Source of the DNA: Bugula neritina
Taxonomy: Eukaryota > Animalia > Bryozoa
Reading direction: 5' to 3'
Assembly (NCBI GenBank): GCA_964035545.1
Contig: OZ037765.1
Span: 8,256,698-8,320,697 of the forward strand
Length of the DNA stretch: 64,000 nt
In this document: one piece after another, positions 1 to 53,342 of the stretch
Layout: every line of letters begins with the position of its first letter
How positions within the stretch are numbered: position 1 is the stretch's first letter
Program-made: the position numbers and the translations under genes
The notes under the pieces: model-generated
What the model was told of the DNA's origin: nothing
Database searches by the model: none
Seen by the model: the letters and a program-made list of their open reading frames with translations, nothing else

Positions 1-2253
1 AGACCATACCTATATGGCAGGAAGTTCCGGCTGCGTACGGATCATGCCTCGCTGATCTGGTTGTGCAGGAGAGCAGAGCCCTCTAGTCAGGTCGCCCGGT
101 GGCTCGAAATCCTAGCTGAATTCTCGTACCGGATCGAACACCGACCGGGCAAAAGACACAGCAATGCGGATGGGTTGAGTCGCCGACCTGACGGAGGTTG
201 CAAACAGTGTCTCAACATCGAAAGGAGGGATGGAGGTCCCCCACGATGCGAGTTGGAGACGCTGGCTCATCACGGAGCACCGTTTGATTGGGATCAAGGT
301 CAACTCAGGCAAAGAGTTGATGAGTCCCCGGAGGATGTACAAAACCTCCGCGCCAACCCTGTACTGGCCGGTAATGTTCGAGAGCTGAAGAAGCTCCAAG
401 AAGAGCTGCCTGGAGTCGTGGCAGACATATACCGGGCCAAAAGGGAAGGGCGACGACCCAGCGAGGAACGCATACGACAGGGATGCGCCGAGTTCCGGCT
501 ATACTGTCAGCGTTGGGACTCGCTGCGGATCGGGCAGGATGGGTTGCTAACCATCTCTCTAGCTGCCAGCGGCAGACATCCGGAAAGGAAGAGGGTAGTC
601 TGCCCCACAGCCATCCGCCGTGAGTTGATTTGGGATACTCACAAGCAGACCCACGCAGGGGTCAAGCGAGTGATGTCCAAATTACGACTTCGGTGGTATT
701 GGCCACAAATGGAGCGTGATGTCCGGCTCAGAGTCAAACAGTGTGAGATCTGCCAGGCCAGTAAGCATAGCCGCCCCCCTGGTGAAGCAGGACGGCGGAG
801 GCTATACGCTGGTAGGCCCTGGCAAGTAGTCGCTGTAGACCTGGTCGGACCCATGCCCCTGACCCCCAGAGGCAATAATTGGATCCTAGTACTAACCGAC
901 CACTTTACTAGGTGGGCGGATGCTCTGGCTATCCCAGACGCATCAGCCCCAACAGTGGCCAGGGCACTAGACCAACACGTATTCTGTTATTTTGGGCTCC
1001 CCGAACAGATACACTCTGATCAAGGCGCTCAATTCCAGTCTCAACTGATGAGCGACCTTTGCCGCCTCTGGGGAGTAAATCAGAGCAGGACCACCCCCTA
1101 CCACCCTCAAGGTAACGGGGTGGTGGAGCGCAACAACCGGATGCTAGGTGATGCACTCCGGAGTCTCCTCCTTGGACGAGGTCAAGAGGAATGGGATACG
1201 GTGTTGCCGCAAGTCATGCGTGCATACCGTAGCACCCCACACACCAGTACTGGTGAGACCCCAAACCTCTTGATGCTCGGGAGAGAGACTCGTGTCCCCG
1301 ACCATCTCACCTATCACGTTCCAGAGCAAGATAACTCAGTCCACGAGTATACCAGTGAACTAGTGGAACGGATGAAGGCCGCACACGAGATACTGCGCCA
1401 ACAGCAGTGGAAGGTGCGGCACGAAGATTCCGATGAACCACCCCTCTATCAAAAGGGAGATAAGGTGTGGATGGTCAATTACCGTAGGCGCCGCGGACAG
1501 GCTGATAAGCTGAAGCCTAAGTTCGTAGGCCCCTACGTGGTTGTCGAGGCTATGCCCAATCATACGTACAAGATTGAGCGCTCAGGAAAGGTATCTATCC
1601 AGAATGAGTCTCGCTTGAAACCGTATTGGGCTAGCCCCGGCGGAGTGGGAGAAGCCCCCCCGTTGTTAGAGCCCAGGAGGCAGACAACAACGCGCGGGCG
1701 ACGGCGGCATGGACCTGAATACGAAGTGGTCATACCGCGGGAAGAAAACTTGGTGAGAGAGGAGCGGCAGCTTCTACCAACAGAAGCGTGTCCGCCACCG
1801 CCAAGTCTAATTCCATCACTTCCAGAAACCGAGCCGGTTCCGGAAGTGCAAACCCCCACGGAGGGAGGGGCTCCATCCGGAGAACAAGAAGAGGTGACGG
1901 CTGACGGTGAAGTAGAGACGCCATTAGAGGCCCCTACTAACGAACCGGCAAGCGTGTCACCCCCCCTAGAAAGGGGACAGCGTACGAGGCAACCCCCCGC
2001 ATACTTGAAGGACTTCGTATGTGACTGCGTTAAAAGCGGCACGCATGAAAGTCTAGGGGAAAACCGTACGAGAAAAGAATCGAGCAAATGTGGGAGTTGT
2101 CAACACCACGGGAATATCAACTTTTACATTGGCGGAAATAGAAATAAAATTCATCCGCCGGGTGCACAAAGTCTTAATCACGCACCCCAACCACGTTGCT
2201 CGATCTTTTCATACGCTGATGCAGTCAGGAGTAGACGTGTTTCTAAGCAGTAG
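1..2253 (+). CDS. pol: Gypsy Pol C-terminal part: RNase H end, integrase (HHCC zinc-binding, DDE core, GPY/F), long Pro/Glu-rich tail
   Basis: Frame is open from base 1 (RPYLYGRKFRLRTDHASLIWL...ARWLEIL...HRPGKRHSNADGLSR). Motifs: H(KQT)H...C(EI)C; VAVDLVGP, HSDQGAQF, YHPQGNGVVERNNR; KLKPKFVGPYVV. No stops or frameshifts. Confidence 0.96.
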   Translation, partial: RPYLYGRKFRLRTDHASLIWLCRRAEPSSQVARWLEILAEFSYRIEHRPGKRHSNADGLSRRPDGGCKQCLNIERRDGGPPRCELETLAHHGAPFDWDQGQLRQRVDESPEDVQNLRANPVLAGNVRELKKLQEELPGVVADIYRAKREGRRPSEERIRQGCAEFRLYCQRWDSLRIGQDGLLTISLAASGRHPERKRVVCPTAIRRELIWDTHKQTHAGVKRVMSKLRLRWYWPQMERDVRLRVKQCEICQASKHSRPPGEAGRRRLYAGRPWQVVAVDLVGPMPLTPRGNNWILVLTDHFTRWADALAIPDASAPTVARALDQHVFCYFGLPEQIHSDQGAQFQSQLMSDLCRLWGVNQSRTTPYHPQGNGVVERNNRMLGDALRSLLLGRGQEEWDTVLPQVMRAYRSTPHTSTGETPNLLMLGRETRVPDHLTYHVPEQDNSVHEYTSELVERMKAAHEILRQQQWKVRHEDSDEPPLYQKGDKVWMVNYRRRRGQADKLKPKFVGPYVVVEAMPNHTYKIERSGKVSIQNESRLKPYWASPGGVGEAPPLLEPRRQTTTRGRRRHGPEYEVVIPREENLVREERQLLPTEACPPPPSLIPSLPETEPVPEVQTPTEGGAPSGEQEEVTADGEVETPLEAPTNEPASVSPPLERGQRTRQPPAYLKDFVCDCVKSGTHESLGENRTRKESSKCGSCQHHGNINFYIGGNRNKIHPPGAQSLNHAPQPRCSIFSYADAVRSRRVSKQ

Positions 2254-2277
2254 TTCAAACCATTTCACACATTCAGT

Positions 2278-3349
2278 ATGTCTTACGACAACAGATCGTG
2301 GGGTGAGTTAACTATATCTTAATACGAAACTAGATTGCATCGCTCAGCTCTGGCTCACCGAGTCAATCGAGCTGGAGATAGGTTAGTGAAATACCGTAGT
2401 AAGAACTCAGTTTGACTTAGAGATTTTTATAATCTCATTGCAATACGTGTTCTATCTGACTATTCACTACCATAAATCTCTACGAGGTAACTGAAGTAGG
2501 AGTTGCCAAGCTGTTCAAGCTGACAACACAGCAGTGTACTGTATTAACACTGTTGAAACTTTTTCAGATTACACTCGACCCGCTACAACCAGGGTACGGG
2601 ATAGAACACTTCCCGCTCCGTATCCGGAGAAGTATGCTAGTGGTGACCGGCCTGAGCCACTACGCCGCCGTTGGCGGTGGGTGTCTCCACAAACAGAGGA
2701 AGAAATAGAAACGGCCTGGGGGTCCAGAGGACGGACGAGATGCCAGATCTGTGGTGAAGATTGCGCCTCTCACCGCTCCCTTAAACTACACGTCAATGCT
2801 CATCTCCTCCTAACATTCTGCCCCTGCGGGTACAATGATGTGTATCCCTACCCCGTCACCAGACACCGAGCGGCGGGCTGTTTCCCTGGAGAAAACTACG
2901 TGGTCGACGTTAAGCTATACCCGGAGTTTCTCACACTTATACGACCTCTGGTGAAGAAGGCCATGCTGTTAGCCGTTCTGTCCTCGGGGTTCCAACGTGT
3001 GTTAGACAACGCCCGCCAACAATCCCCGTTGGTGTCTGACCGTCCGCAAATTACATACACCCCCGAGGAAATTACATATCCAGAAGAAGGAGAGATCTCC
3101 CCTACCCCGACGAAGAGACGAACCAGGTCCCCCAGTCCACCCCTGCGCCGCAGACGGACACCGTCCCCCGACCCAGTCCGCCTGGCCACAGTAGAAGAAC
3201 GCCTCCTGCGATTACAAGAAAAGTTCACCCAGCTGGCACCAGATCTACTTAACACTACAACAGGACTCTTCCAGCTAAAGGGATCCGTATGCCGCATGAA
3301 ACGGAAACTGCGTACATGCCAAGCCAAGCACCGGCGTGCCCAACAATGA
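2278..3349 (+). CDS. Retrotransposon accessory ORF, predicted spliced (2278-2302 + 2568-3349), ~268 aa zinc-finger / Arg-Ser-Pro / coiled-coil protein
   Basis: ATG 2278 (MSYDNRSW+G) followed by donor GTGAGT at 2303; acceptor CTTTTTCAG ending 2567; G+AT restores the frame of ORF 2534..3349, which has no usable N-terminal ATG. Contains C-x2-C-x12-H-x3-H followed by C-x-C-x12-H-x4-C. Confidence 0.72.
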
Positions 3350-3646
3350 CTCTGGTTCTGCTGCCGGAATAATCTGCAATTTCATCCTCTTGGGGGAACC
3401 CAGGACTTCGTGTAAATGCTTAACTGCTGGACAGGTTATTCCTTGCCTAATACCACAGCTAGCTAGTATTCCTCGTCTATCGGCAGCTGGCCAATTGTAT
3501 GCAACGGATCGTTACGATGACTCTGTATTATTATTATGTCTCTTCCTGTATATTATGTGTTATTTTTGTCCACTGATGTATGTAGTTATTAATGAATGTT
3601 TTTTTTTATATATATCAGAAAGATGGCTTTCTGCTGGTGGGGGCGG

Positions 3647-3952
3647 TGTGGTGGTTCGTGGAACTACCAGCAGCACAACATGTAGGGTCGCGTAATTGAC
3701 CCGGAACAATGGATAGCCAATTAGCGTAGTTGATAGTTAGCAGCAATTGTAGTTTCCCGCTGCTAACTCAGTCGAAGCTAGAGTGTGAAATAGATTAGAT
3801 GTATAACTTGTTGGAAATAATGTATCGTGTTTTTATAATGTATAGTTGTGTATAAAATATACTCGTTCACTCGACTTATCCTGGTGCAGTTCTATAGTAG
3901 ATAAATAGACTCTCTGGATAGCACATCAACCCTAAATCTGAAAATCTTAACA
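3647..3952 (+). repeat. Probable 3' LTR (~306 bp)
   Basis: Starts TGTGG immediately after the PPT, ends ...TAACA, and has TATAAAA at 3851. The 5' LTR is not in the window, so the edges are unconfirmed. Confidence 0.65.
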
Positions 3953-4663
3953 CTACTACTAGTACTACTCTAAGTACAAGGTCAAGTGGAAGTTTAATTT
4001 TGTTTTAATGCGATTCGAATGCTATTGCTACCTACTTGTACTAGAAGTAGAAGTAAAACAATCACTTGTACTTTTTTATTAATTTTTACTATAGCTAAGA
4101 CTAAGACTAAGATACTAAGATTAAGATAACCATCAGTATTACATTTACTGTATTTTACTACGTTTCCATTATGCGAATGGATTTTTTTCATTCGGCTAAT
4201 GGAAATAGTTACATCGAATGCAAACCACAAACCACAATTAATCTGTACAGGCATTTATTCGCATAATGCTCAGTCATGGAAACGCAGTGATTGTTTTAGT
4301 GTGTGTTACTATTCTCAAGGCTATAAATAAGTGTTAATGTTAGTTAGTAAGTTAGTGTTAGTAAATACTCAGTTTTATATTTAGTATTTACTAATACTAA
4401 TTTATTTGCTATAAAACTAATTTTGGTATTAATATAAGTAAAACCAACAGTAATATTAATAGTAACTATACTAATAGTAATACCTAATATTATAATTACA
4501 GTACTAATAATAGTTATACTAATACTGTCTCTAACAGTAATACTTATTGTAAATTCACTAATTTTTTATAGTAATAATAACACTAACATTAATAAGTAAT
4601 GACCATACTAATACTTTTATTGATATTCACACTCAAGGTATTGGTAAGACTAAATATTTCAAT

Positions 4664-7600
4664 ATGGTTAAGCTAACAGAGGACCTTGTTCTTGCTAGAT
4701 GTAGATCAAAAGAGCTAGAAAGTGTCAGAAAAATAAACTACTGGTAAGTTATAAGACTAATACAAATATTAATAAATGTAGAGTTTATTTCTAGTCTAGT
4801 TTTGATGCAATGGCAATCATTAGGTTTAGTGACAATGTGGAAGAAGAGCTTAATTAATAAAATAAAACTGTTGTAATCAACTTAAAGTTAATATTGATAA
4901 ATACGTTTATTACCAATTACCATTAGGTAATAGTATTCCTTATGGTCATAGAACTAAATACTTGAATATTTAACTTATTTTTTGTTGTGTTGAGTGATTT
5001 ACCTAAATCTGGAGTATGAAAAATTTTAAAGTAACTGGTAAATATTCACAGGAAACTAGTAGTGGTACCAGTACTGCAAGTACAGACTAGTTCTGGTCTA
5101 GTACTACTACTGCTACTACTACTACTAGCAGTAGTATTAAACAAGAACTACTTTCACCTTGTGCTTGTAGTACTAGTACCACCACTAATTATTCTAACTA
5201 TGCACATACATTTCAAATTTTAATGTGTCGGTAAAGTTCTACTGGTTTACACTTTGTTTTATATTGTATCTTTTTTATTGCTAAGAATAATATTACTAAA
5301 AAGTATTGTTAAGATTAGTTTGCAACAAACTCTTAAATATTTTAGCTAAGGAACTTGATTACTAACTAAGTTTTTGTGTGATTTTCTCTACTTACCAAGA
5401 ATATCAAAATATTATATAGGTCTCTCAATCAAACATATGTTGTATCCTGTAAAACAATCAAAGTTACCTGTTTACTGTACTCTTCCATTGATGACAGGGG
5501 AAATGAATTAGATGACATCAGCATTATGCGAAAGCTGGTCAATGTAGAAGTTGTCAGTCTCAGGTACTTAATATATATGATGTGATAAGATGTTATTTTA
5601 TTATCTAGTCTAGAGATAAAGTTTAGCTCAAACATTTTGTATAATTTTACCATTTTTGCCTGTTTAGGTTTTTTTTACGTTTTTATGTCAGTTGAGGAAC
5701 AATTATTTGCATTTGCTGCAACTCTTTGCCACTTTTTAAAGTTGAGCATCTATTCTAAATTTAAAATTCTTAAAAATAACCTTATTTGCATGAAACTGAC
5801 AATACTATCTTTATTATAATAGTTGAAAACAATTTTTGCTTGCAAACTTCCCCACAAAATACATGTCACAATCAGGTTGCCCTGTTGATGAATTAATTGA
5901 AACATACATGAACAAAATGTACTAAAAATTAATCTGGTCAAGTATACAACTCTAATGCAGCATTTTGTAGCCAAAATATCTGTGCAGATTTAAACATTAC
6001 ATAAGATACTAAAATTAGGAGCTAATGTAGTCTTACACTAAAATTTTACAGATTTTATACCCCAACCTTGCCTATAGTATATATTATAGTTACTTTTCTA
6101 GTGAGTTAATTATTTTTCATATTAGACCCTGTGTGATAAATAAGGAATTCATTTTATTTTTAGTGTCAATGATATCACTTCGCTAGAAGACTTTCAAAAC
6201 TGTAGAAATTTGCAAGAGCTGTACATCAGAAAAAATAAAATCAGCAATTTAAATGAAATATACTACTTGAAAAAGCTTCCAAAACTTCGAACCTTGTGGC
6301 TTGCCGATAATCCATGTGCAACTGGTACTCTGTATAGAATGACAGTTTTGAAGAATTTACCTAATTTGACTAAACTAGATAATGCAGGTAAGTGAACTTT
6401 CCCAAAAGCTAAATCTGTGCAGCTTTTATTTTGTACTTCTAGGTACCTAAAACCTTATGTCAAATTGTTTGGTACAGTCTCAGTGTAAATAAAACTTTCT
6501 ATTAAAATCCACTGTGCAAGTTTGACATTGTCAAATCCATTTGTAGCAGTAAGCAGTGCCATACATATTCAGCTTGTATACTGGCGGGTTAGAATTGTGC
6601 TGGTATTACAAAGCTGCTGGAGTAAACGATGCAGTAATAAATAAGATTTTCAAATATGCCTGTTGAATCTGGAAGCAACTGGTCAACTTTATTAGGCGTT
6701 ACATACTAGTATTGTTATTATATTGTTAGCCATTTGCCAATCATTTTTTATTTTAACATCAATTAATTTGCTAACAATTTGCAATTTTATTAATTGATAT
6801 TATTGTTACTTTCACCGTTTTGACATCTAAGCCCATGACAGTTGAACTGTTTAGGTATTGTAGAAGGCAGGCTCTAGATGTCTTTCATTAATTTTTTGCT
6901 TCCTAAATTTATAATTTCAAAAGTTGAACTTGTTGAATAATTAATTTCACTCCATTTACTAGTTTTGAGTAATTGTTTTCTTGTTGCCTGCGTGCTAATT
7001 TGATAGAAACTTAGTTTTTTTTGGGAAATATTATTTTTACTAAATATTGTGGTTTCAACAAATATATGCTCTATATAAAGTAATCTGCTTCATTTCAGTT
7101 GTTGAAACAGATGAGCTTAATGTTGCCATTGATCAAGGAGCAGATTTGGTAATTCCGGAGGGTGCCGAAAAGTTTTCGGAAGTTCAAAGTGAAGACTCGG
7201 CCGAAAATATTGGGAAAGTTACAACTCTTGGCGACAGCAAGTTAGTTCATTATGTAATATATTATATATAATATATTATGTAATATATTATATATAATAT
7301 ATTATGCCATAGTTAATCTCCAGAACTCTACACTTTTTTTAATCTATAATCACAAAGATATATTATTATATCTCTATATAGTATATGTGTTACACAAGAA
7401 CACCATAATTGTTTACATTATGTTTGATGTATTTACTCTCTAATTAAGTACAATATACTTTGAGACTTTTATGTGATTTAGTGAACTTAGTGCAAAGCTT
7501 GAGTGTCAACCATTACCAGAAGAAAAAGTGGCCGAGCCATCAAAATCCGGTGGTCCAACAAAATTCAGGGTAAGAATGTAGACGATTCATAGCAAGTTCC

Positions 7601-8189: not shown

Positions 8190-10576
8190 TCATATAATGT
8201 TTTGGGCTGGTATAGTGTACTGCAGAGATAGCTGGTCATTGATAACAAACATTTGGATGGCTTCATTTGCTATTATGTCTAAAAGATAGAGAATATATTA
8301 GCAGAATATAGTGTTGAATATGGATGAACTTAGCATGCAGAGCTGAATGCATTTTACCAGTGAACTTCATTATCGTCAAATTAATACTTTCAGCAAATCG
8401 TTTTTCACATGCTAGCATATTTTCACACTCTGGACTAGTATTTAAGACGAGATATTTCTACAGCAGTAATTAAGTGACATCAATAAACAGATAAACCTTT
8501 AGCTTTCATTATGAAAGAAGAATTTTAGATAAATATGTGGTTTTTCCTAAATAATATCATTATTGTTGTCACATTAGCATTATTATTTCAATTACAACTA
8601 TGCTAACACAACACAGTTATAAATGTTTATTTGCTTAAACATTTTTGTGACAATCTTTAAATAAAAATGTATGAATTAAAATGATAAACAATAAATGTAG
8701 ATCTAAAAATTGATGAAGCTGCTATGAAATTTCAAGCATTATTGAGAAGACAACTCCCTTGTTTATCCAAACTGATCAATAATGATGAAATGGTAACTTA
8801 CTGCAAACTACTTTGTCGACAGGGATTTGAATCGATGAGAGAAAAGCATGCAATCTTTTATTATCTATTGTTACTTCAAAAAACTTGGACGCATTCCTAT
8901 TTGAAGAAGGCTGAATCATCGTGCCTTGAGACTGTGAAGAGCTAGTTTCTTCTATAACAAATAAAACCATATTACATAATATTATTTACTTTGTTTTTAA
9001 GTTTTTACCAATCTTTAATTCTTATAAACAAACATAAGCTGAGAACATTTTAAAAATGAACTCACTCCAGTTTGCTTGCATGAGATCCTTAAATGAAACA
9101 CTCACAGCAGCCATCTCTGATTTAATTTTCAAGACCAGATCTCCTTTTTGGTTAGCACTAAGACACTTGAAATACAATGATACAAAACTATGAACAAATT
9201 ATACCAGTTGAAACGGGTATTCATTATACGGCAGCAGGAAAATCGTAAAAAAAACAAAGCAAAACTATATATGTGAATTTGATCAACCATTGGCCATACA
9301 ATGACTGCCCTTCCTTTCTCGAAGTTTTAGAGATCCGAGTAGATGTTTTGATGACTTATTGCAGAATATATGAGCTTTAGCATAATACAGTAAATTACCA
9401 AGTAGATATTTTTAACTAAAGTACAGAAAAAATGTTTTCTGCTTACCAGTGCATTGCTAATATTTTTCAGTCGCTCAATCACAGTCTTCATAATTTTAAG
9501 AGGTGGCAAATATAAGCTGACTTCAAATTCAGGAATATCTGGTTCCTTATATTCATCCCAAAGTCTGCTAGGAATTATTTTTATTGGAATGTCATGTATT
9601 ACTGTTCTACTACTGCTGTTGATACTGAGTGTAGGCTGCAATTGAACACAGAGAATGCAAAATAGTTTTATGAAACTAACAAAAACTGTTGGAGCAAATT
9701 AATCTGAATGTATCATTGTAACAGTCATCCCACCGGTAGTAACCCTACACGAAATTACCAATTATAACACACTTTGGCAAATTGTACTCTTGCTAAAAGT
9801 TTTTACCACAAGCTTCCAATTTTCATTTAGCCCTGAAAGCAGCAGTTCTAACCTGAACCACCTCTAAAGTTAGGCAGGCAGTAGCCTTCTGTGTCAACTT
9901 TATTCTAAGTGTTTGAGCTTGATGAGCAGACTTGAGAGCATGACCAAACAAGTCCATAGCCACTTCCATGTAAGTCTCATTTCGATCAGTGTGCCCGGAG
10001 AACTCATAGCCTGAGCAAAAGTTTATCTGCAAAAATACTGTAGAGCAGAAGTATGCAACCAGAAATACTCAATTAAACGTTTTTTTTAGATGGGTAGTCA
10101 ATTTACACTATAATGCCTTGCACATTATGACACAATGCTTGTAAACTGATAAGAAAACTAATTTTAGTCCTTTGTAAACATTATCGTAAGCAGAGCGCAA
10201 AACACACAAGCTTTGATACGCATGTATGAAAGCAGAGAAGTTTTTGGAGGATCTTACCTGAGGTAACTCACACCAGAGATTTGTCCCCCCATGCAACTGA
10301 TTTTGTGTGAGTATGAAATAAATTTTTGTAGCTGTGAGTCGGATTACACACGACTTAGAGAGTTTGGCAACACCCAGTACAACTTCTACAAACAGTTAGA
10401 GTTACTTACTACAAAATATACTTGTAAGTTATGTAATAGTTAAAAGCTACGTACAAAATTTCATAATATTTAATTCAAGTTTATAATTTAAAAAAATAAA
10501 TTATCATCTATGCTTTCCACTTACTTGACAGAAATGATATAGAGTTAATGTCAACCAGAGTTGCTTTAAAACGCAT
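8190..10576 (-). CDS. HUS1: Checkpoint protein HUS1 (9-1-1 clamp), 7 coding exons: 10525-10576, 10258-10385, 9853-10026, 9447-9635, 9066-9165, 8802-8951, 8190-8278
   Basis: MRFKATLVD...VAKLSKSCVIRLT...GGTNLWCELPQ...ALKSAHQAQTLRIKLT...SRTVIHDIPIKIIPSRLW...VSLYLPPLKIMKTVIERLKNISN...SLQYTIPA; colinear with recalled HUS1; splice phases consistent. Confidence 0.95.
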
Positions 10577-34395: not shown

Positions 34396-36976
34396 TCATA
34401 CAATAAAAATGGTTGCATCATCAACATATCTAAACTTCTATAATATCTTGTTACGATTCTGTTTATAGGACCGACTGGTAACAACTGGTTTTAAGAATCT
34501 CGTTTTATTTAAAACAAAGAATAAAGATAACCGTATTTGTGGAATTTATAATTATACTCTTTCAAGGTCAATGTATCAAAAAATTTATATAAAAATATGT
34601 AGTATTTTTACAAATCCTGCTATAATTCAATAAAGAAAAAGGTAAACATTTACAAGTGTGATGCTATAATAGTAAACTTTTAAGCGCCTGAACTAAGTTG
34701 AGATAGAAAAATGTTAGTTCAACTGCACAACTCTGTTTATATCTTCATCTTTCATTTCAACAGAAATGGTTTTACAAAAAGCATAACTTAAAAATCACCA
34801 ATTCAATAAAATAGCTACATGCAACATTATTTTATAAACAAGATTCATACTTACTAGTCTACGAAATGACAAGCAACAATATAAAGCTACTACCAACTAA
34901 ATCAACATATATCCACTAAACTGTATGCAATCAATTGGTGAGATAATGCTCTAATCATAATTTGGTATATGCTATCACCATATTGTCAAACAATAAACTT
35001 ATGGAATCCTCATAGATGTGTTAATAGGGTTGTTACAGAATAATCAAGAAGATAAAGAGCTTAGGAGATAATATTTAAGGTCAAATGATAAACTTGCACT
35101 AATAATTTTGAAGATTTACCCGAGAGTTACACTTTAACCAAAAACTTTGGATTCAAACGGAATGTAAAATTAAACATTTTACATGGCATAGTATAACATT
35201 ACCATATTATAAAATTTTCTGAATATTGAAAAATAATTCTAGTAGGCAACTAGTATATAAAACTATCCAGATTTAGTAAGAAGCTAATAAAGAACTGGAT
35301 TTATGAGTTATAATTAACTGTATTACAATTATTAACTTAATAAAAACCATTGCTCAAGCATAAAACTTAAAGTATGCCTTAATAACAAACTAAATGTCAA
35401 ATTAGCAACACATATCAACTTTATTAAAAAACAGGACAGTAATTTTGTAGCGTTTACCAAATTTGGCAATAATCATGATAATTCTCAATTTTGATAATAA
35501 ATTTGTAATAATATGCACAAAGTAGTTTTTAAAATTTTATCTTGCTTATGCTAAAACTTAGTGCACTAGTTGAATGGATATGCTACCTTTGTCTTTTTAT
35601 CACCTCTTTATTTACCAATTAGACTAACTTCAACTTGAGTTCAAATTCTGAGGCAAGAGCAAATAATTGATCTATCTCAATTTTAAATCTATATTTTTAC
35701 TATAACCTGCATCAAATGCAATGATACTGGTTATGATTAAAATAGCTATAATTATAGTAATACTACGATTGATTTCATGATTAGGATTATGGTACACAAT
35801 ATAAGAATGAATATATAAACTATTGCACTCAAAATTATAGTGATAGTCACTTAATAATAATAATGTATCAGTAAAATCACTTATTATTAAACTTGAACTT
35901 ATTAAAAATTAAATAAGCTAGTACTAGGCAATATGAGTATGACTACCATAATCACTATAAGTATCAGTCTGAGTATGATAGTGAGTGAGTATGGCCATCA
36001 ATATTAGTGAGGGTATTACTTTACTACAGTAAAATAAAAACTAATTTCATGACCATAGTTAGCCATTTGCATAGGATCTGGTCTAGATGTAAGCCATTGA
36101 CTACTGTGATTTTCATTGTCACTATCAGTATGAGTATCATTGTTATTACACCTTCACTTTGACATACTGTTGATAATCATAATTGTGATAGTATTAATGA
36201 TTGTAAAGTTGTAAATTGTTAAAGCTGAGTCTGTTATAATAAATGATTAACATTTTGAATCATATAGTTATTCTTACAATTACTGAGTAGCGAGTAACAC
36301 TAACTGCAACTAATCCTACACATACTGAAAGTGTAACTCTACTTATAGTTGTAAGCATAGCCACAGCTAGGAAAAGCATGTTCCACACTAGTTTTTTTGC
36401 CACAAACAATTCATGAGATGTGAGGAGAATATAATGACTAATTACCAAACAGCAAGTGCTGTTACAAATGCTAACCCTGGTCTAATATAAGTTGTTACTA
36501 GAGGCTTCCCTATGGCTATAGCCATTCCAGCTGCTGCGGAAGTTCTACCTCAACTAAGGTAAAGCCCATAAGTCATAACTTCAAGTTGAAGCGTTGAATT
36601 AAAATAAAAATAAAAATACATAGCCTACTCATTCTCATAGTCATACGACTACTCTGACTCTGAGTAATAGTAGGCATACACTTAGAGTTAGTCTTACTCT
36701 TACTCTTAGAGTTACACTTACTGTGTATGTTGGTGACTTACTGTTAGTGTTACACTTACACTTGCAGTAACTGTAATACTAATACTAATAGTAATACTCA
36801 CACCATTAAACTTAAAGTAAGTGACAGTGACATTGTAAGTCTAAGTTGCTGTTACTGCTAGTAACACTTACACTGTGCTAGACTTAGTGCTAGTGTTCAA
36901 GACTAAGAGTAAGAGTTAGCTTTAGATTAGGAGTAAGACTAACTGAGAGTGAGTAACAGTAACTCTACTTCTAGTC

Positions 36977-37136
36977 TAGGAGCAAATAGTAATTATATTT
37001 ATAGTATATTGACCTTACTGGCTTACACCTTGACTTGCTCTAACTCTAAGACCTGAGTAAGTCAAAGTCAAAGTGTAACTGTAACTCAAACTGTAAGCCA
37101 GTAAGGTCAATTTACTATAATCACTATTTGCTCCTA
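36977..37136. repeat. Inverted repeat, ~50-bp arms
   Basis: TAGGAGCAAATAGTAATTAT...ATTGACCTTACTGGCTTACA versus TGTAAGCCAGTAAGGTCAAT...ACTATTTGCTCCTA. Confidence 0.8.
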
Positions 37137-37659
37137 TTACCTATGATAATATTAAACAATGTTTAATAATTTATAATGATATTTACATTAAAAGTAATTA
37201 TATTGGTAAGCATTTTAATAATTAACACTATCTAAATCTTCGTATTTAATTTTATGTTTAATATGCCATGATAATGCCCATGATGATCATCCTACTACTC
37301 GGATGATTATTGCTCTGTGTTCCGGCTTGTAAATACTATATAGCACGTCCGTTCAAGAAAACTGTTATCCGAATATATCTATAGATTTAAAAATATTGTC
37401 ATCTGTGGTACACAGTTTAACTGAGACAACTCAAATATTTATTTTTTGTTCAGCGACAGCGTTTGCTTATTTATAGAGTAGATAACCCCATAATAATATT
37501 CAGTTCATCCTAAAACATTCTTAGCCATTGAACTATAATACCTTTATAGTTTATAGGTTATAGTTTCAGTTCAGTGTTCTTAGCTTTGTGGAAAGCCGAT
37601 AAGAGTTATCAATAGCGATGCACTATTCCGGAGGTAGACAACTTCTTTTGCCTGATGCC

Positions 37660-37850
37660 AAGTTCAGAAGTCAGCCAAAACAAAGGGCCACATGACTGTA
37701 CACATATTAATTTTTATTATCATAAAGTAATTTGTCACCAAACTTATACTGTGCTTATAACAGCTTTTACTCATTTTAGCATTAAAAGGGCCACTGAAAA
37801 ATGGACAAAGGGCCACAGGTGGCCCTGGTATTCCCAGTTGCCCACCCCTG
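37660..37850. mobile_element. Probable hAT-type non-autonomous transposon remnant
   Basis: Ends in GTTGCCCACCCCTG (reverse complement CAGGGGTGGGCAAC, a hAT-like TIR) with repeated AAGGGCCAC subterminal motifs. The other end is not evident. Confidence 0.4.
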
Positions 37851-39157
37851 CACTATATTGTTACATTGCACTTATATTGGCTACACAGCATAGTATATAA
37901 GTTTAGCTGCAATTTATATTTGTTGGGCAGCATGAATGCAACAGATAAAAATAACTCTATTAATAGTTTTTATTATAGATACTCATACAGCAAAAGCTAA
38001 AGTGTAATGTGAAATACTAATGACCAAGCATGGCCATCTGGTTTTAGTTGTTGAAGGTTTTAAAGTTGATAAAAAAAGTAAGTAGAGTTATAAAAATTTT
38101 ACGGTCAATTTACATGCACAGCTACATTTTTAGCTTACGTCTCACTAAAAGAAATATTAGTTCTAAATATAATTGGGAATGTATATTTTAAGCTAGAATA
38201 TACTTAAATTCTAATAAATTGAATGTCAAAATTATGAAAATGTTGCATGTTCAAAGAGTCCACTTTATTTGTAAGAAAACAACTATAATTAAAGTAATTG
38301 AGTTTTTTGAAATTATAACTTGATTATACTTGACTTTTTTATAACATCGCAAAAGTGAATGAAATAACACAAGCTTGTGTACTAAAGTACGAAAGATAAC
38401 TAAAAAACCATTGAAAAACTAACAAACGAGATTGTCCCATTTTGCTATATTAACTGCTGAACAAAATTTGTACGAAAACTTTTGTACACAAAATACGATG
38501 TTTTGGAAACATAAGTAAAAGTCTAAATAACTTGTATTTTGACTTTTGCTTTTTAACACAGCATTCTAACTTATTCACATGTATTCTAAACCATTTTCAT
38601 GCATAAGTAAAAAGTATTTAGTATATCCAGTCGAATATTTATACTATAAATAAGTATGCATTACTGCATCAGTATTCAATTACTCTATGCGCCCAAACTA
38701 CTATTTCATAGGATAACAAAAAATGTAATTATTTTTTGTAGCTGCTGCTGTTCAAGGTGATCTTTAACTTCACTTTTTAAAGATTTATTAAAGCTTTTAA
38801 AAAATGATTCATAATAATTATTTCGTAAAATATAATCTACAGTTATACAAAACTGGAAGTGCATGTGTTGAAAAATATAAGAAAAATATTGACAATAAGA
38901 AAATATAATATTATGCAAAAATATAACACTTTAATGTACAGCAAAGTTATGCTAAGTTATTTTTTGATGGCTTTGATTCAATTACTGCTAAGACTGCATA
39001 TTATTTTTATTTGCTGTTAAATTGTCAGAATTTAAATTTTACTATATCTGTAACATTTTGTGTTGTCCACATGACACACAATTTTCAACCATCAGTGCTA
39101 TAGACTAAGAGTTTAAATTAAACGATTTGCTCTTGAATAAAGCTTATTTCTGAAACT

Positions 39158-53342
<14,185 letters not shown>

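Follow-up and report, generated by a model that had tools for sequence, protein, structure and literature searches.

Retroviral genes of the Rev and Tat type have a short first coding exon and a main exon, are expressed from multiply spliced RNA, and encode a basic stretch and an oligomerisation helix. The retrotransposon systems compared with our locus are those described in PMC10309623, PMC7264820, PMC2774666, PMC7459421 and 10.1101/2025.03.14.642691. In the Cer1 element of C. elegans, the ORF in the env position is part of a spliced mRNA, and its product, CERV, is required for genomic RNA export; CERV has 517 aa, is encoded by five exons, three of them in the gag frame, and carries a C4 finger and a G-protein-like domain (PMC10309623). 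Other extra ORFs in the env slot are conserved, and some (Bagy2) are spliced; those in sense orientation are env-like with transmembrane segments, others are antisense, and their origin is mostly unknown. Accessory ORFs also occur in env-less Gypsy elements of the MDG1 group, where sORF1 and sORF2 lie upstream of gag, their transcripts show no sign of splicing, and sORF2 is likened to FAST-type membrane proteins (10.1101/2025.03.14.642691). At the end of Pol, finally, chromoviruses carry a chromodomain and Ty5 a targeting domain (excerpts of PMC2774666 and PMC7459421).

The gene considered here, ORF3, follows pol in a retrotransposon at the start of a 64,000-nt stretch of Bugula neritina DNA (assembly GCA_964035545.1, contig OZ037765.1, positions 8,256,698 to 8,320,697; hereafter the window). 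It resembles the Cer1 gene in being a non-Env gene in the env slot that is, by prediction, spliced. The "complex" retrotransposon proposed in a sequence-only reading of this locus has a precedent in CERV (PMC10309623). In their features the two differ: ORF3 would encode 268 aa and start from a predicted mini-exon of its own downstream of pol, its product combines a C2H2-like finger pair with a coil at the end, and some of its homologues are fused to Pol. The private ATG mini-exon argues for a design unlike that of CERV, whose 5′ exons are shared with gag. In contrast to the other env-slot ORFs, the origin of ORF3, most likely a Pol tail, can be traced. When fused, its module occupies the same slot as the chromodomain and the Ty5 targeting domain; it differs from them in its fold, its long linker, its terminal coiled coil and its presence as a separate gene in this element. 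The predicted short first exon and main exon, the basic stretch and the helix also recall Rev and Tat by analogy, although PDB/BFVD-type fold searches gave no sequence or fold link to genes of that type.

The first 3.9 kb of the window are the 3′ half of a Ty3/Gypsy LTR retrotransposon (Table 1), with a GC content of 0.57 across the first 2 kb against about 0.3 past 4 kb, where the AT-rich genome of the host animal continues. The pol part encodes the end of RNase H, integrase H2C2, core and SH3-like domains and a proline-rich tail, in that order, and stops with a TAG at 2251-2253; RNase H thus precedes integrase, as in the Ty3/Gypsy order RT-RNase H-integrase, and the closest relative, P0056, carries PR-RT-RH-IN. 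Further downstream, a polypurine-tract-like run directly precedes a TG...CA LTR whose ends are presumed, and depth in sequencing run X2, in which the family is very abundant (3230 contigs on 1-4200), drops past about 3920. No chromodomain was among the Pfam hits for the pol of the window or of P0056, P0058 and P0059. The element is Ty3/Gypsy, and neither env-bearing nor a chromovirus.

Table 1. Features of the element at the start of the window
Feature	Position	Strand	Basis and remarks
pol, 3′ part, 5′-open at window edge	1..2253	+	Pfam: rve 5.5e-16, Integrase_H2C2 1.2e-14, RT_RNaseH 2.6e-7
Acceptor-like site ending ATTCAG	2263..2276	+	Predicted 3′ splice site of a leader intron with its donor outside the window; use presumed
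Start-codon mini-exon, 25 nt, phase 1, pol frame	2278..2302	+	Sequence
Predicted GT-AG intron, 265 nt	2303..2567	+	Sequence; GC 0.39, four stops in exon-2 frame
ORF3 exon 2, 260 codons including split first codon	2568..3349	+	Homologues; stop 3347-3349
Double zinc-finger domain	2648..3034	+	C-x2-C-x12-H-x3-H, then C-x-C-x12-H; flanking W-V-S helix, V-D strand
Arg/Ser/Pro-rich basic stretch, subfamily-specific	3101..3175	+	Alignment; putative role as NLS or phospho-switch
C-terminal coiled-coil helix, basic end	3191..3343	+	Helix 209-259 in model, heptad scan
Polypurine-tract-like run, precedes LTR	3636..3646	+	Purine run in sequence
3′ LTR, TG...CA, TATA-like at 3851	3647..3928	+	Presumed boundaries; 5′ LTR lies outside the window

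The surroundings of the element hold host sequence. Exons of a leucine-rich-repeat gene with Pfam LRR matches, which we take to resemble CFAP410/C21orf2, lie at 4664-6390 (+); since this gene starts about 0.7 kb downstream of the 3′ LTR, the LTR lies in its promoter region and in the same orientation. Exons of a Hus1-like gene (PF04005) follow at 9327-10395 (-), an array of 28-bp tandem repeats occupies 44091-44773, and 43793-43909 is a long run of TA. Run X2 also contains rare joints at 2685-3613 and 3216-3613, at a depth below 100 against about 35,000-40,000, which skip most or the end of ORF3 and suggest internally deleted copies; locus L001, of another family, has a similar deletion.

The sequence-only reading had described an upstream acceptor, an ATG, a phase-1 donor, an intron and a 3′ exon lacking a start codon, and all of these were recovered where it had placed them. 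The acceptor-like ATTCAG ends 23 nt past the pol stop, with its AG at 2275-2276, and the ATG at 2278 lies 25 nt past that stop. The mini-exon ends at G/GTGAGT; from the pol stop to the LTR, GTGAGT occurs nowhere else. The predicted intron has a GC content of 0.39 compared with 0.56 in pol and exon 2, contains a branch-like TATTAAC at 2542-2548, in the loop of a predicted hairpin, and terminates in TTTTCAG at 2567. The predicted join yields an open frame of 268 aa. In this copy the first in-frame ATG of exon 2, at 2963, lies past the zinc fingers, and the exon is therefore without a usable start of its own. When 2254-2540 was resampled 20,000 times under a Markov model, 8.2% of the resamples contained an ATG followed by an uninterrupted frame up to a phase-1 GT[AG]AG donor, and 2.65% did so when a YAG just upstream of the ATG was also required; start and donor of this single copy are thus only moderately beyond chance. 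RNA run X1 (11 contigs) has no cover over 2242-2715 and showed no joint.

The mini-exon and intron appear to draw stronger support from comparison than from the signals of the single copy. Metagenome and viral contigs yielded no DNA locus to the ORF3 profile, nor did viral contigs to pol queries; the splice signals of relatives were instead deduced back from gene-caller proteins translated across them, with no DNA link from pol tails to ORF3 proteins. Thirteen family proteins reach the first codon of exon 2 in frame, and 12 of them have [FL]S[DG][YH]T there, which fits YTTCAG/RY, and P0188 has the same acceptor site in another frame. The exception is P0022, with a non-acceptor-like peptide before the conserved D. 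P0021 (48% identical) begins V-S exactly 88 codons before the conserved D of exon 2, a position that fits a GTGAG..CAG intron of 265 nt, and agrees with P0024 near the acceptor, with an apparent frameshift farther up inside the intron. P0022 instead has an N-terminus of its own, 14 residues long, that meets exon 2 precisely at its first codon, and possibly derives from an intron-less (spliced or processed) copy.

The 5′ side of the gene was approached through 17 pol-tail homologues. P0300-P0302 stop at the position of the window, whereas six diverged tails (P0305-07, P0309-11) run on and end in IQ-x-x-NV-x9-R and a stop, a peptide compatible with a CAG, an ATG 7 nt later and a phase-1 G/GT donor 34 nt on. 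In these six the mini-exon would lie in a frame other than that of pol, whereas the mini-exon of the window is in the pol frame. P0304 ends just past IQ, and the remaining seven of the 17 end earlier or diverge. All seven diverged tails that read through the spot (7/7) have [ST][RNH]IQ, compatible with ATTCAG. Start, phase and sites appear to be kept in diverged relatives but the mini-exon peptide is not, as expected if the mini-exon only supplies an ATG. Most other subfamilies have in-frame ATGs within exon 2, and a mini-exon would therefore not be needed there.

Within the family, the 146 X2 contigs on 2190-2720 have 28 variable sites, none of them listed in the six signals, and the listed indels of this region are confined to the intron; for 28 signal nt, given 28 variable sites per 531 nt, we estimate the chance of zero variants at about one in five. 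The mini-exon itself has two synonymous variants and one non-synonymous variant. Predicted RNA hairpins cover both splice regions (z -3.4 and -3.6, picked from 50 windows); copy variants show no covariation in them, and three of five paired variant sites break the first hairpin. Another hairpin is predicted inside the pol end at 2075-2135 (z -2.7). Only one of 12 listed X2 intron variants falls in the 3′ two thirds of the intron (2396-2567), a segment that the translations of relatives still resemble and that possibly holds a conserved cis element. From these comparisons it is very probable that the mini-exon supplies the ATG and that the 265-nt intron is spliced out. It is somewhat favoured that the LTR leader is spliced to 2276 as well, which would make the mRNA doubly spliced.

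Exon 2 is a real gene: of 2844 candidates, 55 are homologues with identities of 44-97%, and the ORF3 profile matches 131 cluster representatives at E<=0.001. Within the family the signal is weaker: counted on 40 of 165 variant rows, the listed X2 variants comprise 5 synonymous and 8 non-synonymous changes in exon 2, mostly in the variable N-terminus, and 19 and 8, respectively, in pol. An AlphaFold model of the zinc-finger domain from a 74-sequence alignment reached a pLDDT of 95.4 and a pTM of 0.87. In that alignment C58 is invariant and C32, C35, H48, H52, C60 and H73 are at least 90% conserved (numbering from 2648). Finger 1 is a C2H2 finger (C-x2-C-x12-H-x3-H) with PDB C2H2 sequence matches down to E 6e-6; finger 2 is an atypical C-x-C-x12-H in which the last ligand varies, and its linker is hydrophobic. 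Classical tandem C2H2 fingers are joined by the canonical TGEKP linker, and ORF3 lacks such a beads-on-a-string arrangement. In Pfam the domain of the window remained below thresholds, with no family covering it. Searches by fold returned nothing at E<=0.001 from PDB or BFVD and nothing at Z>=5, which does not imply a new fold, and an Atlas search gave only matches under 0.9. The weak fold matches were mostly C2H2 proteins (best VIA Z 3.7 over 58 residues), together with unrelated generic helical folds.

A model of the whole protein from a shallow alignment was poor (pLDDT 58). By our own heptad score, 86 of 100 domain-bearing proteins whose tail has at least 70 aa have their best window within the last 45 aa, and this score exceeds that of shuffles by 0.2 in 70 of the 100, about a third of which are ORF3-family rows. 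No transmembrane segment was found in ORF3 (maximum KD19 1.5), and its N-terminus is not hydrophobic. The product is not an Env but a double C2H2-like zinc-finger and coiled-coil protein, and the combination of finger pair, basic patch and coil suggests a dimeric nuclear nucleic-acid binder. Two further proteins, P0190 and P0231, each have two tandem double-finger copies and a terminal coil, and BLAST finds no similarity between them and the window pol; they could have arisen by duplication of an element gene or be host genes that were domesticated. Of the spliced non-Env gene that the sequence-only reading had proposed, the conserved non-Env gene is upheld and relatives appear to keep its mini-exon and intron, while spliced RNA was not seen.

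What that reading had missed is that many relatives within the clade carry the ORF3 module fused to the C-terminus of Pol. We examined the best 120 of 583 Pol relatives, all proteins of at least 1314 aa, a length filter that inflates the fused share. A profile built from the ORF3 family only matches the C-terminal extension of 22 of the 120 at E<0.001, and after profile iteration the module is found in frame in 31 of them, 191-715 aa behind integrase; the spacing from integrase to fingers in the window, about 350 codons, is within this range. All fusions fall inside the clade of the window element (31/86, against 0/34 outside). In the integrase tree (95 rows, 9 of them outgroup, with P0140 left out as incomplete and 25 distant rows unused), the sister of the window element, P0056, has no fingers, whereas in P0058 and P0059, the pair that branches next, they are fused to Pol. 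Finger and integrase distances are correlated (Mantel rho 0.667, 0 of 2000 permutations, n=32), which indicates that the clade has long inherited the module. The nearest relatives of the window by finger identity (27-31%) differ from its integrase-tree sisters. Four members of a clade subgroup (P0120, P0127, P0131, P0140) have PF00692, which we take to be dUTPase, inside Pol.

On DNA, the ORF3 profile matches 4 of 80 loci. The module is fused to Pol in L005, lies behind stops or frameshifts with no clear intron in L004 and L006, and at L001 is present in one copy and deleted in another; in L007 and L012 it is absent and pol runs straight to the LTR. An origin of the intron by intronisation of a former coding linker was rejected as unsupported: none of five intron-derived queries scored above shuffles against four linkers (best p 0.16). 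Fusion to Pol in clade relatives, together with co-divergence with integrase, makes a detached Pol tail the most likely source of the accessory gene. Given that the length filter inflates the fused share and that the tree has 20 state changes, the direction is one that we infer, and on these comparisons fission from pol, rather than fusion to pol, is probable.

Several other accounts of ORF3 must be set against these data. Because the ancestral place of the module, C-terminal to integrase, is the slot of chromodomains and of the Ty5 targeting domain, the main rival keeps the same spliced gene but makes its product an integration-targeting tether acting in trans, with the fingers gripping chromatin or DNA and the coil gripping the integration complex. 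Integrase targeting domains do direct site choice (excerpts of PMC7459421), the module sits downstream of integrase in 31 of 86 clade polyproteins and co-diverges with integrase, and about 0.7 kb separate the copy in the window from the start codon of a host gene downstream, a single anecdotal site. The simplest advantage of a tether would, however, be lost once it is detached, and the linker of the fused forms is long (191-715 aa) and could allow release by protease; we regard this account as rather unlikely. Still less likely is a singly spliced RNA in which the mini-exon is the first exon, transcribed from an internal promoter in the pol end, and ATTCAG is not an acceptor. Competing AGs at 2246-2253 and the want of a clear branch site near the upstream acceptor would fit such an RNA, but ATTCAG-compatible residues are kept in the seven diverged pol tails that cover the spot, even though this spot lies beyond pol in the window and is read there in a different frame.

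It could also be argued that there is no real intron and that ORF3 is a remnant Pol extension, either silent or expressed through stop read-through, frameshifting or re-initiation as the fused protein known from the relatives. The ATG of the mini-exon is in the pol frame, eight codons past a single TAG; in P0195, which the finger tree places near the family, pol-tail motif and fingers share one frame; and no junction read was seen, with run X1 lacking cover over the region concerned. Against this, the stop position is common to P0300-P0302, the exon-2 frame meets four stops in the intron, where copies also differ by frameshifts, the intron has no protein similarity to the coding linkers of four relatives, and exon 2 is open and conserved down to 44% identity. 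In P0305-P0311, moreover, pol ends inside the donor and in another frame, so that splicing would not fuse Pol to exon 2 there. We consider an intron-less remnant quite improbable. A combination of read-through and splicing into a Pol-ORF3 fusion was rejected as unlikely, because the frame of pol relative to the mini-exon differs between subfamilies. As for a divergent Env or fusogen, position and predicted splicing are all that would speak for it, and a maximum KD19 of 1.5, an N-terminus that is not hydrophobic, a single sequon and a zinc-finger fold make it scarcely credible.

The reading that we favour, at a probability of roughly 45% and by analogy with described systems, is that ORF3 is a spliced accessory gene split off pol whose product would act in the nucleus to regulate how the element itself is expressed. 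In a subgenomic RNA, the LTR leader would be joined to 2277 and the mini-exon to exon 2; translation from the ATG of the mini-exon would then yield a protein of about 30 kDa that is separate from Pol. This protein would dimerise through the coil and enter the nucleus via its basic end, where the finger pair would bind the LTR or the unspliced RNA of the element and raise the output of full-length genomic RNA, like CERV or Rev. With its splice sites little used and masked by the predicted hairpins, most of the RNA would stay unspliced. We give the step from coil dimerisation through nuclear entry and LTR or RNA binding to raised genomic RNA output, modelled on those systems, slightly less than an even chance. 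Regulation of transcription or RNA export is preferred because separation from Pol is easiest to understand for a factor working early and in trans. More speculatively, and improbable as it stands, the lineage may have been caught turning an undescribed Pol-end double-zinc-finger/coiled-coil module of a widespread animal clade into a Rev-like feedback accessory gene: after fission from pol, a start mini-exon and an intron would have been gained, and the ORF3 protein would bind the hairpins over its own splice sites and free unspliced genomic RNA.

The in-frame fusion of the ORF3 module to the Pol end in 31 of 86 long clade polyproteins is new here. Among literature titles and the beginnings of abstracts, none describes the domain, the gene, its fusion to Pol or its fission, although supplements, Repbase/GyDB entries or subscription journals may; the main text of PMC8556966 and PMC6238403, in the parts available, has no occurrence of "zinc", "ORF" or "intron", and their supplements may differ. 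These observations bear on the open question of how simple retroelements acquire separately expressed accessory genes. One clade contains the module in three states, fused to Pol, absent, and as a (predicted) stand-alone spliced gene, so that fission as the way in which an accessory gene is born can be tested directly. The module also defines a zinc-finger family of more than 100 members, well folded as modelled and outside Pfam, that may regulate or target many animal retrotransposons.
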